Positions 1 to 4,590 of a DNA stretch of 4,590 nt are shown here, in pieces. The notes under the pieces were generated by a model. It saw only the letters and a list, made by a program, of their open reading frames with translations, ran no database searches and was not told where the DNA came from. The stretch lies in the IMG/VR virus record IMGVR_UViG_2734482538_000008; one strand, written 5' to 3'. Both the position numbers and the translations under genes were made by a program. The DNA is from a virus (taxonomy: Duplodnaviria > Heunggongvirae > Uroviricota > Caudoviricetes). The first letter of the stretch is position 1; every line of letters starts with the position of its first letter.

Positions 1-79
1 GCTTTGAACTCTTTAGAGTAACGTTGGGTTTTTCTGCTCATTATTAGCTCCTTCTGATGCCATTCTATTTCAGGAAGGA

Positions 80-782
80 GTGTCCGTTAAACTCAGGCTA
101 CCTCAGGTTATTCGCTTCTGGGCATGGGCGGATCAACAAATGATAGACGGTAATGCAGATTGTAACGCTCGCGGCGTTACAAAAAGTGCAATAGATCGCA
201 TCACTTTTATGTCTGGTTTTGCTGATGCGTTAATTCAGGTTGGATGGCTGGTCGAAAATGACGGAGGGCTTTCTCTACCTAACTTTGAACGTCATAACGG
301 AAAAAGCTCTAAAAAAAACGGGCGGTTACAAACGAGCGAGTAACAAAAATACGCGAACTGAAACGAAAAGGTAACGCTGCCAGCGTTACACAAACGGATC
401 AAAAAGCGTTACCAGAGGAAGAGGAAGAGGAAGATCTAAATACTGATCTCCCCCTCGCCAAAAACGAGCGTCTAAAAAATTCGAGCCGGAGGCTATTGAG
501 CTGCCCGATTGGTTGCCGGAAACACTCTGGCATGAGTGGGTCCGGTTCAGACAGGCATTGCGAAAACCGATTCGAACGGAGCAGGGCGCTAACGGGGCGA
601 TACGGGAACTGGAAAAATTCCGTCAGCAGGGTTTTACACCTGAGCAGGTGATTCGACACAGCATCGCCAATGAATACCAGGGCCTGTTCGCGCCGAAAGG
701 TGTTCGGCCTGAGACGTTGCTCCGACAGGTTAACACCGTCTCGTTGCCGGACAGTGCGATCCCGCCAGGCTTCAGGGGGTAA
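80..782 (+). pseudogene. Phage replication initiator (O-like / replisome-organizer type); reading frame broken twice as sequenced
   Basis: Frame-2 ORF 80-343 (GTG start at 80, AGGAAGGA at 72-79) ends ...GWLVENDGGLSLPNFERHNGKSSKK. Protein-like translation then continues in frame 1 (about 319-477: RAVTNERVTKIRELKRKG...EEEEEEDLNTDLPLAKNERLK) and in frame 0 (about 478-782: KFEPEAIELPDWLPETLWHEWVRFRQALRKP..., stop TAA 780-782). Both frame switches fall at homopolymers: A8 at 311-318 and the C5/A5/A6 runs at 450-479. The stop lies 6 nt before the helicase-loader ATG, the usual initiator/loader arrangement. Domain family is pattern recognition only. Confidence 0.55.
162..412. repeat. Cluster of dyad-symmetric GTAACGC / GCGTTAC repeats (iteron-like, candidate replication origin inside the initiator gene)
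   Basis: Two full 19-bp palindromic sites, GTAACGC-tcgcg-GCGTTAC (162-180) and GTAACGC-tgcca-GCGTTAC (371-389). An extra GCGTTAC half-site sits at 406-412 and a weaker GTTAC...GTAAC pair at 325-344. That is five exact copies of one 7-mer (either orientation) within about 250 bp, where well under one is expected by chance. I found only one other exact copy in the window (2365-2371). Confidence 0.4.
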
Positions 783-1561: not shown

Positions 1562-1577
1562 AGTTTCAGGAGGATTT

Positions 1578-2000
1578 ATGGCGAAACCTTTTACTCCCGA
1601 ACAGCGGGAAGAACTGAAGACGCGAATTGTGGAACTCGTGCATCAGGACGGTCGGGTCACGATTCGGCAGTTGTCAGATGAAACAGGTATCAGTCGTGCG
1701 TCTGTCGGTCGCTTATGCATAGAACTGGTCGCAAGTGGTGATGTATATAATTCTGGCTACGGCTTATTCCCGTCTGAACAGGCTCGCAAGGACTGGCAAA
1801 GCGCCCGCAAAAAACTCTCGAGAGTAAAGGTGAGGAAACCGGTTGTTGTTGATCCGGACCTTATCTGGTCATTACCTGACGGAGAAATACGCCGCTACGA
1901 CAGGCGCCTGAATATAATCTGTCGCGAGTGCCGGAAGAGCGAAGCTATGCAGCGTGTACTGGCTTTCTATCAGGGTAATTTTCAGGAGGCGATACTGTGA
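1578..2000 (+). CDS. Hypothetical protein with putative helix-turn-helix / winged-helix DNA-binding motif (140 aa)
   Basis: AGGAGG at 1568-1573 sits 4 nt before ATG 1578; stop TGA at 1998-2000. The translation MAKPFTPEQREELKTRIVELVHQDGRVTIRQLSDETGISRASVGRLCIELVASGDV... contains an HTH-like segment. An N-terminal extension into the N-run cannot be excluded, but the strong SD supports 1578. Confidence 0.7.
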   Translation: MAKPFTPEQREELKTRIVELVHQDGRVTIRQLSDETGISRASVGRLCIELVASGDVYNSGYGLFPSEQARKDWQSARKKLSRVKVRKPVVVDPDLIWSLPDGEIRRYDRRLNIICRECRKSEAMQRVLAFYQGNFQEAIL

Positions 2001-2414
2001 ATGAAATTAGCTATCAGGCTTCAATTACCGCTGGCATTCGCATCAAAGGAGAGGAGCATGGAAATAAAACCAGAAGATGAGTTAAGCAATATCGTTTTAT
2101 TTCCGGTAAAAGAGGATGACCCTCGTAATCAGGTTAATTTTCTTTATGAGCCATCGGAAAGACCATATTGCCATCACGCCTCTGTACGGGTTGACGAAAA
2201 AGAGCGTCAGGTCCGCTGTAAAATCTGCGGTGCGGTTGTGGAGCCGTTTGACTGGATGCTCTCTGTGGCAAAAAGAGAAACCAGACTGGCAGATGATGTA
2301 AGGCTATTGCGCCAGGAGGAACAGGAAAGGCGGAGAAATATAGAAAAGCTGATACAGATTGAGCGTAACGCGAAAGCGCGGATACGCAGGGCGACAAAAT
2401 CCAGAACTGAATAA
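2001..2414 (+). CDS. Small hypothetical protein with CHH...CxxC zinc-ribbon-like motif and a C-terminal charged coiled-coil-like segment
   Basis: ATG 2001 overlaps the upstream stop (TGAATG), suggesting translational coupling. An alternative start at ATG 2058 has a better SD (AGGAG 2047-2051, 6-nt spacer) and would give 118 aa beginning MEIKPEDE. Motifs: PYCHHASV...RCKICG, then RLADDVRLLRQEEQERRRNIEKLIQIERNAKARIRR. Stop TAA at 2412-2414. Confidence 0.6.
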   Translation: MKLAIRLQLPLAFASKERSMEIKPEDELSNIVLFPVKEDDPRNQVNFLYEPSERPYCHHASVRVDEKERQVRCKICGAVVEPFDWMLSVAKRETRLADDVRLLRQEEQERRRNIEKLIQIERNAKARIRRATKSRTE

Positions 2415-2518
2415 TTAAATTTAGCACTGTTAAAAATTTAATCCTTAACCGGAGGGATTTCTGCACCCTCAAATCATCAGGAGACCACCCGAAAGGGCGG
2501 GGAGCAGTCACACATCTG

Positions 2519-2548
2519 TTTCCGATAGCCCCGTTCTAATGCTACACT
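2519..2548 (+). promoter_or_regulatory. Candidate sigma70 promoter with extended -10 upstream of the QueH-like gene
   Basis: TGcTACACT (extended -10, 2540-2548) with a weak -35 TTTCCG (2519-2524). It lies in the 146-nt intergenic gap before ATG 2562. Purely a sequence-pattern call. Confidence 0.25.
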
Positions 2549-2561
2549 CTTTGATATTTTT

Positions 2562-3248
2562 ATGACCCCAATAAACATATTTATGACAGTTGCTGATTTC
2601 AAACGGCCCAAATTGGAGCTCCCAAACGGGGCAAACAAACTACTACTGCACTCTTGCTGTGCTCCATGTTCCGGTGAGGTGATGGAGGCGCTTCAGGCCT
2701 CGGGAATCGACTACACCATCTTTTTCTACAACCCGAACATTCATCCTCAGAAAGAGTATTTAATTCGTAAGGATGAGAATATTCGCTTTGCTGAACAACA
2801 CGGCGTGCCGTTTATTGATGCTGATTACGACACAGACAACTGGTTTGAACGAGCCAAAGGAATGGAATGGGAGCCCGAACGAGGGATCCGTTGCACCATG
2901 TGTTTTGACATGCGTTTTGAGCGGACAGCGCTGTACGCCGCTGAAAATGGTTTCAGTGTGATCAGCAGTTCACTGGGCATTTCACGCTGGAAAAATATGC
3001 AGCAGGTTAACGACTGTGGGCGGCGAGCCGTCGCGCATTATCCGGGCATGGTGTACTGGGATTATAACTGGCGCAAGCAGGGCGGCTCGTCCCGTATGAT
3101 TGAAATCAGCAAGCGCGAAAAATTCTATCAGCAGGAATATTGTGGCTGTGTGTATTCTCTGCGCGATACCAATCTACACCGCAAATCTCAGGGACGCCCT
3201 CTTATCAAAATTGGTCAACTCCACTACGGTAAAGAAGAGAAGGAGTGA
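2562..3248 (+). CDS. queH: QueH-like epoxyqueuosine reductase homolog (DUF208 family), 228 aa
   Basis: Translation carries the N-terminal [14 protein letters not shown] motif, then [21 protein letters not shown] and QEYCGCVYS. This cysteine pattern is what I recognise as the DUF208/QueH family. Assigned from memory of the family, not from a search. Start could be ATG 2562 or ATG 2583; neither has a clear SD. Stop TGA at 3246-3248. Confidence 0.8.
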
Positions 3249-3269
3249 TTTTATGGGGCACCTTTCTGA

Positions 3270-3299
3270 TTGATTTCATATTGGCGAGGTAAGTAGAAT
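3270..3299 (+). promoter_or_regulatory. Candidate sigma70 promoter (TTGATT -35, TAGAAT -10, 18-nt spacer)
   Basis: -35 TTGATT at 3270-3275 and -10 TAGAAT at 3294-3299. Same hexamers as the promoter at 3777-3804. Predicted start near 3306, reading into the inverted repeat and the N-run. Confidence 0.3.
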
Positions 3300-3317
3300 G
3301 ACTGCGGGTGCTTGAGG

Positions 3318-3354
3318 CTATCTGCTTCAGGCATGAACACCAAAAGGCAGATAG
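3318..3354. repeat. Perfect 8-bp inverted repeat CTATCTGC ... GCAGATAG (21-nt spacer); operator or 5' stem-loop candidate
   Basis: CTATCTGC at 3318-3325 pairs base for base with GCAGATAG at 3347-3354. It sits just downstream of the predicted start of the 3270-3299 promoter. The same 8-mer recurs at 3794-3801. Confidence 0.4.
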
Positions 3355-3395
3355 AGAAAAGCCCCAGTTAACATTACGCGTCCGGCAAGACGCTT

Positions 3396-3681
3396 NNNNN
3401 NNNNNNNNNNNNNNNNNNNNNNNNNNNNNNNNNNNNNNNNNNNNNNNNNNNNNNNNNNNNNNNNNNNNNNNNNNNNNNNNNNNNNNNNNNNNNNNNNNNN
3501 NNNNNNNNNNNNNNNNNNNNNNNNNNNNNNNNNNNNNNNNNNNNNNNNNNNNNNNNNNNNNNNNNNNNNNNNNNNNNNNNNNNNNNNNNNNNNNNNNNNN
3601 NNNNNNNNNNNNNNNNNNNNNNNNNNNNNNNNNNNNNNNNNNNNNNNNNNNNNNNNNNNNNNNNNNNNNNNNNNNNNNNNN
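3396..3681. other. Run of 286 N (assembly gap or masked sequence)
   Basis: Directly visible. It lies between a candidate promoter plus hairpin (3270-3354) and an intrinsic terminator (3712-3763), so whatever that unit encodes is hidden. Confidence 0.99.
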
Positions 3682-3711
3682 GTGTCAGGCATCCTCAACG
3701 CACCCGCACTT

Positions 3712-3763
3712 AACCCGCCCATCGCTGTGATCTCTCAGCGTTTCGGCGGGTTTTTTGTTGTTT
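3712..3763 (+). terminator. Rho-independent terminator (bipartite GC-rich hairpin followed by T-run)
   Basis: Outer stem CCCGCC (3714-3719) pairs with GGCGGG (3745-3750), extendable by two A-T pairs. Inner stem CGCTG (3723-3727) pairs with CAGCG (3736-3740) around an 8-nt loop. Followed by TTTTTTGTTGTTT (3751-3763). The orientation terminates + strand transcripts coming from the left. Confidence 0.55.
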
Positions 3764-3776
3764 ATTTCCGGTGAAT

Positions 3777-3804
3777 TTGATTCGCGCACCTTCGCAGATA
3801 GAAT
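3777..3804 (+). promoter_or_regulatory. Candidate sigma70 promoter (TTGATT -35, 16-nt spacer, TAGAAT -10) for the downstream ORFs
   Basis: -35 TTGATT at 3777-3782 and -10 TAGAAT at 3799-3804. The -10 is overlapped by the GCAGATAG motif (3794-3801). It lies directly downstream of the terminator and about 80 nt upstream of ATG 3886. Confidence 0.4.
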
Positions 3805-3885
3805 CGACTCACTTAAGTAGCGCGCAGGGAGAAGAGGGATGGACCCCGAACAGGGGAGAGCTATTTATCTGGAAGGATTCTGAAG

Positions 3886-4173
3886 ATGAAAATCGAAGAA
3901 TTGCGTGAAATTTTTAGTGAAAATGGCCTCTATGCTGTGCGCGTTGAGAATGGAGCGATTGTCAGCCATTGCCGCATTAGATGTTTGCAATCTCAACAAA
4001 GGAAGAGCGGTGCTGTGTTATTTTATTTTTGTAATGGACTTCTGACGGACGGTTTTATTTTGCGTGAGGACGAATTTGTCACATCATTACGGGTTTTGAA
4101 AGAGATTGGTTTTAAGGCTGGTTTTCTGCTTTTGCTGAAGAATAAACTCATCTACAATCTTGAGCAGGATTGA
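3886..4173 (+). CDS. Hypothetical protein (95 aa), AT-rich moron-like gene
   Basis: GGAAGGA at 3871-3877 sits 8 nt before ATG 3886; stop TGA at 4171-4173. My manual count gives about 40 percent GC, lower than the neighbouring genes. It has its own upstream promoter candidate. I do not recognise the family. Confidence 0.5.
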   Translation: MKIEELREIFSENGLYAVRVENGAIVSHCRIRCLQSQQRKSGAVLFYFCNGLLTDGFILREDEFVTSLRVLKEIGFKAGFLLLLKNKLIYNLEQD

Positions 4174-4211
4174 ACTCCTGCTGTGTAACACCGTGCCACC
4201 GGAGAAAGCCG

Positions 4212-4565
4212 ATGGCACATATACAACTGGTCAAACAAACCTCTTCCGGATTACTTCTCCCGGCGACGCCGGAGAGTTGCGATTTTCTGCATCAAATCAA
4301 AATAGGTGAGTGGATACACGCAGACTTTAAGCGTGTGTGTAACTACGCATTCCACAAGCGTTTTTTCAAACTCCTGCAACTGGGTTTCGATTACTGGACT
4401 CCGGTCGGTGGGGCGATCACGCCTCGCGAACGAAAACTGGTGTCCGGTTTCGTTGATTACCTGTGTGAATCAGTAGGCCGGGAACATACGCCAGCTCTGA
4501 GCGAAGCCGCAGAGCAATTGAGGTGTACTGGCAATAGCGGACACTACCATTTGTTCTTTTTTTAA
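4212..4565 (+). CDS. Hypothetical nin-region protein, possibly YbcN/DUF1367-like (117 aa as sequenced; may be truncated)
   Basis: GGAGA at 4201-4205 sits 6 nt before ATG 4212. Translation MAHIQLVKQTSSGLLLPATPESCDFLHQIKIGEWIHADFKRVCNYAFHKRFFKLLQLGFDYWTPVGG... resembles my recollection of DUF1367/YbcN-type prophage proteins (low certainty). The TAA stop (4563-4565) uses the last base of a T7 run (4557-4563). Confidence 0.55.
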   Translation: MAHIQLVKQTSSGLLLPATPESCDFLHQIKIGEWIHADFKRVCNYAFHKRFFKLLQLGFDYWTPVGGAITPRERKLVSGFVDYLCESVGREHTPALSEAAEQLRCTGNSGHYHLFFF

Positions 4566-4590
4566 GCAGCCATCTGATGATATTTTTCCC

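Follow-up and report, generated by a model that had tools for sequence, protein, structure and literature searches.

A run of 286 N at positions 3396–3681 hides most of a compact unit in the 4,590-nucleotide (nt) stretch of DNA analyzed here (IMG/VR record IMGVR_UViG_2734482538_000008, Caudoviricetes; hereafter the window), and raises the question of what the unit encodes. A preliminary description, made from the visible letters alone, had noted a promoter, an inverted repeat and a terminator around the mask, and had proposed a self-contained transcription unit for either a small protein or, as it preferred, a structured non-coding RNA. We conclude that the unit is almost certainly a hok/mok/sok cassette of the type I toxin-antitoxin class and allelic to hokW-sokW, located in a degraded Rac/Qin-like lambdoid prophage. 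It is indeed a self-contained unit, placed between QueH and the downstream prophage genes, and the small-protein option was the correct one: judged by the body found in relatives, the plus-strand transcript would be a hok mRNA for a 51-residue toxin. The hok/sok system is already known, very common and well understood.

Identification from the visible flanks

A scan for RNA families, as proposed in the preliminary description, identified the family from the visible 5′ flank alone. The Rfam model RF01794 ("sok antitoxin") matches the plus strand at 3306–3365 over model positions 1–58 of 157 (53.9 bits, E = 2.3e-10), and was the only match in the Rfam scan of the window. The score falls just under the gathering score of 59 bits because the mask cuts the match off; for the complete, unmasked locus of the nearest relative the score is 117 bits (positions 1–157). 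Full Rfam scans returned no other credible family, with ceN48 and KCNQ1OT1 at E ~0.8 being chance matches, and a search for tRNA or tmRNA genes, also suggested at the outset, found none. The visible flanks alone sufficed for naming what lies under the mask, so that the matter can be regarded as closed. Although named after the antitoxin, RF01794 matches the sense strand, covering the hok mRNA leader from its 5′ end as far as the hok ATG, and the match (3745–3920 in the relative L001) is not on the antisense strand from which Sok comes. Coordinates of L001 convert to those of the window by subtracting 439 to the left of the gap and 434 to the right of it.

The promoter stands as previously read, with its −35 hexamer at 3270–3275 and its −10 hexamer at 3294–3299 together matching 9 of 12 consensus positions. 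On its own this match is weak, because the promoter scan found 2 such sites in 850 nt where 0.6 were expected from shuffled sequences. However, the −10 block AAGTAGAAT is common to the window and to hokW of phage VT2-Sakai, and the Rfam match begins, at model position 1, with G3306, the start predicted 7 nt 3′ of the −10 hexamer. This exact coincidence supports the promoter and places the start of transcription at ~3306.

At the other end, the strong terminator was also read correctly. Its stem is formed by AACCCGCC (3712–3719) and GGCGGGTT (3745–3752), followed by TTTTTTGTTGTTT, and the tail 3′ of the stem reads T6-G-TT-G-TTT. The 25-nt loop contains a second, nested hairpin of 5 base pairs (bp), and the 3′ piece folds with −22.8 kcal/mol (z = −5.3). 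A simple terminator scan, limited to loops of 3–8 nt, called no terminator around the unit; it missed the hairpin because of this loop limit, and folding revealed it. From 3306 to ~3756 the unit measures ~446–451 nt, in agreement with the earlier estimate of about 450 nt.

The perfect 8-bp inverted repeat, CTATCTGC (3318–3325) and GCAGATAG (3347–3354), has its first base at +13 and is the core of longer, imperfect arms of 19 nt each (3307–3325 and 3347–3365). As a perfect palindromic pair of 8-mers directly 3′ of a promoter, it could be taken for a DNA operator bound by a repressor of that promoter rather than for an RNA hairpin. The repeat lies at +13 to +49, however, within the transcript; the 21 nt between its arms would be an unusual distance for the operator of a dimer; and it is part of a helix of the Rfam covariance model. 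The RNA 3306–3366 folds with −25.8 kcal/mol (z = −3.7). We further compared 47 distinct alleles, drawn from genomes and viral contigs and encoding Hok proteins with no less than 88% identity. In this set the arms co-vary with Watson-Crick pairing kept, once from A-U to G-C (27 versus 17 alleles) and once from C-G to U-A (42 versus 4 alleles), and G-U intermediates also occur. Such intermediates make sense only at the level of RNA, and we have therefore rejected the operator, whose probability we regard as minimal.

The masked body and its relatives

A megablast search of positions 2562–4590 against complete Escherichia coli genomes returned E. coli FDAARGOS_944, whose flanks are 99.8–99.9% identical to those of the window and in which the product annotated between QueH and the genes that follow is "type I toxin-antitoxin system toxin HokD". 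Further assemblies were gathered by an exact-match scan of genome contigs and an exact-protein look-up with the Rem-like open reading frame (ORF) described below. In seven assemblies (L088–L092, L094 and L096) the flanks 1562–3395 and 3682–4518 are 99.8–100% identical to the window, and all seven carry an identical body of 281 nt. Body lengths range from 272 to 281 nt in 59 prophage copies with flanks resembling those of the window. Closing the gap might have yielded an ordinary continuation of the flanking genes; looked at via the relatives, the body holds hok, mok and sok instead, and the window very probably carries the same, its flanks being identical.

A scan of this body for ORFs, another step proposed earlier, found Hok (51 residues) and Mok (70 residues). 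The Hok frame scores 81.1 bits against PF01848 (cut-off 22), is identical in the seven assemblies, and is preceded by a strong AAGGAG ribosome-binding site in the relatives. The mok ATG has a GAGG 8 nt upstream in L001, and its frame runs on into hok; this layout is the one annotated as mokW/hokW in the VT2-Sakai record (AP000422). The preliminary description was also right to see no convincing coding start in the visible flanks: they correspond to the untranslated regions of the mRNA, 5′ and 3′. In hok, codon 47 (Tyr) is UAC with a G after it (UACG; L001 4055–4058, masked window ~3616–3624), and may be a candidate editing site here too.

An RNA gene is present as well, although it is not the plus-strand product that had been envisaged: sok lies inside the unit on the opposite strand, with a promoter of its own in the masked part. 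The portion visible in the window, ~3353–3395 on the minus strand, is the 3′ third, comprising the descending arm of its terminator and the U-tail, while the start and the 5′ recognition tail fall within the mask. The predicted Sok consists of a free 5′ tail of 9 nt, a long hairpin and CUUUUCUCU (−30.2 kcal/mol, z = −4.9). The free tail is complementary to the mok ATG region, and the predicted RNA coincides with the sokW misc_RNA annotated in AP000422 (transcript positions 51–121). The hexamers of the sok promoter (L001 3901–3896 and 3878–3873, minus strand) were placed by their position relative to the annotated sokW and by conservation; both fall in conserved columns of the 47-allele alignment. 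The elements of the cassette are listed in Table 1.

Table 1. Elements of the hok/mok/sok cassette in window coordinates, with the positions of masked elements taken over from L001
Feature	Position	Strand	Basis
hok mRNA promoter, −35 TTGATT / 18-nt spacer / −10 TAGAAT	3270–3299	+	consensus, VT2-Sakai −10 block, Rfam start
Predicted hok mRNA 5′ end, tac (translational activator) GGGUGCUUGAGG	3306–3317	+	RF01794 positions 1–12
hok mRNA 5′ hairpin (the inverted repeat)	3318–3354	+	fold, compensatory changes
Predicted sok antisense RNA, ~71–76 nt	3353–3427 (part masked, approximate)	−	L001 3792–3866
ucb / anti-Shine-Dalgarno box AAAGCCCC	3357–3365	+	
Probable mok frame, 70 residues, in frame with hok, common stop	3419–3636 (masked, within 5 nt)	+	L001 3858–4070
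Putative sok promoter, −35 TTGCCT / 17-nt spacer / −10 TAACCT	3434–3462 (masked, approximate)	−	
Probable hok toxin gene, 51 residues, MKQQKAMLIALIVICLTVIVTALVTRKDLCEVRIRTGQTEVAVFVDYESRK	3476–3636 (masked, within 5 nt)	+	L001 3915–4070
fbi (fold-back inhibitory) element CCUCAACGCACCC, complementary to the mRNA 5′ end	3693–3705	+	
hok mRNA 3′ terminal hairpin / intrinsic terminator, 8-bp outer stem, nested 5-bp hairpin, T-run	3712–3757	+	

Folding of the hok mRNA and its probable working

The element names used here, and the model in which tac pairs with fbi and ucb with the Shine-Dalgarno sequence, come from work on the hok mRNA of plasmid R1 (PMC9841398). The whole transcript of a relative (446–448 nt) folds with about −190 kcal/mol (z = −8.0), and its minimum-free-energy fold, at −191 kcal/mol, includes the tac/fbi pairing. 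Bases visible in the window are enough to give the same pairing: between the 5′ 12-mer and 3682–3711, 12 bp form with a single bulge (−21.1 kcal/mol), and fbi is the best partner of the 12-mer in the visible window, the 12-mer's own complement aside. In the full-length fold, GCCCC of ucb (3361–3365) pairs with the GAGG Shine-Dalgarno sequence of mok, as GCCCC(A)/(U)GAGGC. When the 5′ fragment is folded alone, tac pairs instead with 3359–3365, and this tac/ucb pairing is also part of the Rfam consensus structure. The tac/ucb stem corresponds to the open or metastable form of the mRNA (PMC9841398), with the switching itself being predicted.

Across the 47 alleles, 92.4% of the cells of the alignment pair in the predicted structure, compared to 34–41% when the 3′ partners are slid by 1–3 columns. 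The bases of tac are invariant, and the tac/fbi helix (helix 1), itself nearly invariant, is paired in 99.8% of cells; helix 5, formed by ucb and the Shine-Dalgarno sequence (alignment columns 56–61 with 101–106), is invariant. The compensatory changes described above are those of helix 2. The terminator takes different forms: in most alleles it is a compact AACCCGC-TTCG-GCGGGTT, and some alleles, such as hokW of Sp5, have an unrelated 3′ end.

The exceptional structure of the transcript, together with visible flanks that lack a start codon in good context, could suggest that the promoter drives a structured non-coding RNA of ~450 nt and not a protein gene, as the preliminary description preferred. 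We consider this highly improbable. The body encodes a Hok/Gef family protein behind a strong ribosome-binding site in all relatives, the searches for other Rfam families, tRNAs and tmRNAs gave no match, and a structure of this kind is known as the translational lock of an mRNA (PMC9841398). Promoter, inverted repeat and terminator thus all belong to the hok mRNA.

By analogy with the R1 and Sp5 systems, a hok/mok/sok cassette of this kind would work as follows. The promoter would give a full-length mRNA of ~446 nt, starting at ~3306, that is translationally locked: tac would be paired with fbi, directly upstream of the terminator hairpin, and ucb would sequester the mok Shine-Dalgarno sequence. 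Slow exonucleolytic trimming from the 3′ end would remove the terminator hairpin and fbi; such 3′ processing to a translatable mRNA is known for R1 (PMC9841398). The released tac could then re-pair with ucb, giving a 5′ structure built on the inverted repeat and freeing the mok ribosome-binding site. Translation of mok would permit that of hok, whose product is expected to be an inner-membrane toxin. As long as the DNA is present and transcribed, the short-lived Sok would bind the activated mRNA around the mok start by base pairing, which would lead to cleavage by RNase III. Once sok transcription stops, either by loss of the element or by DNA damage and prophage induction, the pool of stable hok mRNA would be translated, resulting in cell killing or lysis.

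Several observations weigh against the cassette as reconstructed here, or against its activity. The body is masked in the window, and the N run of 286 nt differs from the 272–281 nt of every relative; no relative has a 286-nt body. A 5-nt indel, and hence a frameshifted hok, is therefore conceivable in the source strain. The other N run (1218–1561) is likewise longer, with 344 N against 316 nt in every relative. Three assemblies (L091, L092 and L094) are 100% identical to the window over most unmasked bases, and for L091 this extends over 414–1217, 1562–3395 and 3682–4590, the sole other difference being a 30-nt change in repeat length near 414–434. As both runs exceed the relatives in spite of these identical unmasked bases, we take their lengths to be unfaithful, rather than to reflect two private indels, while acknowledging that this does not lend itself to proof. 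The scan for minus-strand promoters missed the sok promoter, which matches ~7 of 12 consensus positions and falls below the threshold. The tac/fbi pairing is not singular in energy, given that an unrelated segment (953–982) pairs with the 5′ 12-mer at −20.0 versus −21.1 kcal/mol. The covariation test of this helix in the 47 alleles was uninformative, both elements being nearly invariant, so that the pairing is backed by conservation and energy and not by covariation. Finally, as summarized in a preprint (bioRxiv 10.1101/2025.08.07.668861), several chromosomal hok loci of E. coli, hokA, hokB and hokC, are reported to show neither post-segregational killing nor a response to rifampicin, which leaves activity in a remnant bracketed by insertion sequences unproven.

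The last point, along with the conceivable indel, bears on the possibility that the cassette is intact in sequence and yet an inactive relic, conferring no killing, stabilization or aid to lysis, in a dead prophage fragment. What surrounds it is a prophage remnant with an IS600 cut at either end. On the other hand, every readable regulatory element is intact (promoter, tac, hairpin, ucb, fbi and terminator), the hok frame is open in a body that seven assemblies with identical flanks share without change, and HokW, which is alike in 50 of 51 residues, is toxic and regulated by sokW (PMC8621323). An inactive relic thus seems unlikely on balance, though it has to be reckoned with. Decidedly more speculative, and improbable in our view, is the idea that the 25-nt loop of the terminator slows 3′ maturation and retunes the release of Hok, with the cassette acting as an addiction module that preserves the IS600-bracketed remnant. 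If true, a remnant with QueH and the Rem antirepressor would be kept in Shigella and E. coli in this way, as a variation on a known mechanism.

Related hok loci and the prophage context

The closest characterized system is hokW-mokW-sokW of the Stx2 phage Sp5/VT2-Sakai (also L0137/L0138/L0144 of phage 933W), with 92.4% nucleotide identity over transcript positions 1–405. The two Hok proteins agree in 50 of 51 residues, and the Mok frames, both in frame with hok and of 70 residues, agree at 68 of the 71 positions compared, the stop being counted with the 70 residues. The hairpin and tail of Sok, the −10 block and the 5′ end are the same, and both loci are prophage-borne. Sok has a different 5′ recognition tail, and the mok start region facing it differs as well (GCAAAGCAUGAAAUUGG here, GUUCAGCAUGGAUUGAG in hokW-sokW), suggesting that cross-neutralization with sokW may be limited. 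The −35 region and the upstream neighbor are also unlike those of hokW: QueH precedes the unit here, in an early/nin region, whereas the VT2-Sakai record has the hokW locus near one end of the phage genome. The Sp5 hokW 3′ end does not have the AACCCGCC...GGCGGGTT terminator. Experimentally, HokW is toxic and is neutralized by sokW RNA with the help of RNase III and Hfq, and HokW has been reported to promote lysis and the release of phage following mitomycin C treatment (PMC8621323). As a textbook type I system whose allele is 92% identical to a characterized one, the locus has little value for discovery.

Compared to hok/sok (parB) of plasmid R1, the locus shares a toxin of the Hok/Gef family, mok, the antisense Sok, tac/fbi, the ucb anti-Shine-Dalgarno box and the 3′ terminal hairpin, as well as the 5′ sequence GG(U/C)GCUUGAGG and the Rfam family. 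In R1, mok overlaps hok in a different frame, whereas mok of the window allele is in frame. The R1 system is carried by a plasmid and has a proven role in post-segregational killing; the copy in the window resides in a chromosomal prophage remnant. Toxins of the HokW type are only 44% identical to R1 Hok (PMC8621323).

The cryptic prophage Qin of E. coli K-12 contains hokD (relF) in the same synteny, hok - rem - DUF1367 (ydfU). The DNA identity is 79% over a stretch that starts 14 nt before the hok ATG and continues through rem. The homology starts only there, so that the whole leader and sok are missing: the K-12 locus (L097 1611–2289) is devoid of the promoter, tac, 5′ hairpin, ucb, mok start and sok, and has relBE in their place, with 71 nt between relE and hokD. 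The NCBI pipeline (PGAP) calls the protein of the relatives HokD, and the window represents the complete, self-regulated form of this hokD-labeled locus. The public label thus hides a complete cassette, unlike the truncated hokD of K-12, and Sok, mok and the mRNA regulatory elements are unannotated in the RefSeq record consulted.

The K-12 locus hokC (gef)/mokC/sokC also has an in-frame, N-terminally extended frame of the Mok type, of ~69–70 residues, and a Hok/Gef toxin. AP000422 describes mokW as "similar to Gef leader protein". The hokC locus occupies a different chromosomal place and is not prophage-borne. Related loci are present in 4713 of 5426 complete E. coli genomes, and hok genes are known to be enriched in prophages.

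The window covers a Rac/Qin-like early region with, in order, a fragment of an O-like gene, ydaV (DnaC-like), a DUF977 gene, the gene for a 118-residue zinc-ribbon protein, QueH, hok/sok, a Rem-family antirepressor and a truncated DUF1367 gene. At both ends of the window (1–105 and 4518–4590) lie the ends of IS600 copies (IS3 family) with the same orientation, so that direct repeats of IS600 enclose the 4.4-kb prophage fragment. The O-like replication gene is cut short by the left copy, and the DUF1367 gene by the right one, at about codon 102. Assemblies L090, L091 and L094 show the same bracketing. Within the O-like protein fragment, a GAGGAA-type tandem repeat at 414–434 encodes an acidic linker; this is the site of the 30-nt length difference from L091. 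The first mask (1218–1561) covers the C-terminal 105 codons of ydaV.

Just past the hok terminator, a second promoter-like site (3777–3804, TTGATT-16-TAGAAT) lies upstream of a 95-residue ORF (3886–4173). This ORF is assigned to PF27490 (Rem) in a public index, while a direct Pfam-A scan gave no match. In prophage Qin, Rem acts as an antirepressor of DicA (bioRxiv 10.1101/2023.04.14.536235). The 118-residue ORF (2058–2414), between the DUF977 gene and QueH, is "hypothetical" in relatives; its C-terminal tail is charged, and its match to the zinc-ribbon family PF08271 is weak, with 21.5 bits falling below the cut-off. Directly upstream of hok/sok, the QueH gene (2583–3248; PF02677, 221 bits) encodes an epoxyqueuosine reductase, a tRNA-modification enzyme carried by a phage, inside a prophage early region.

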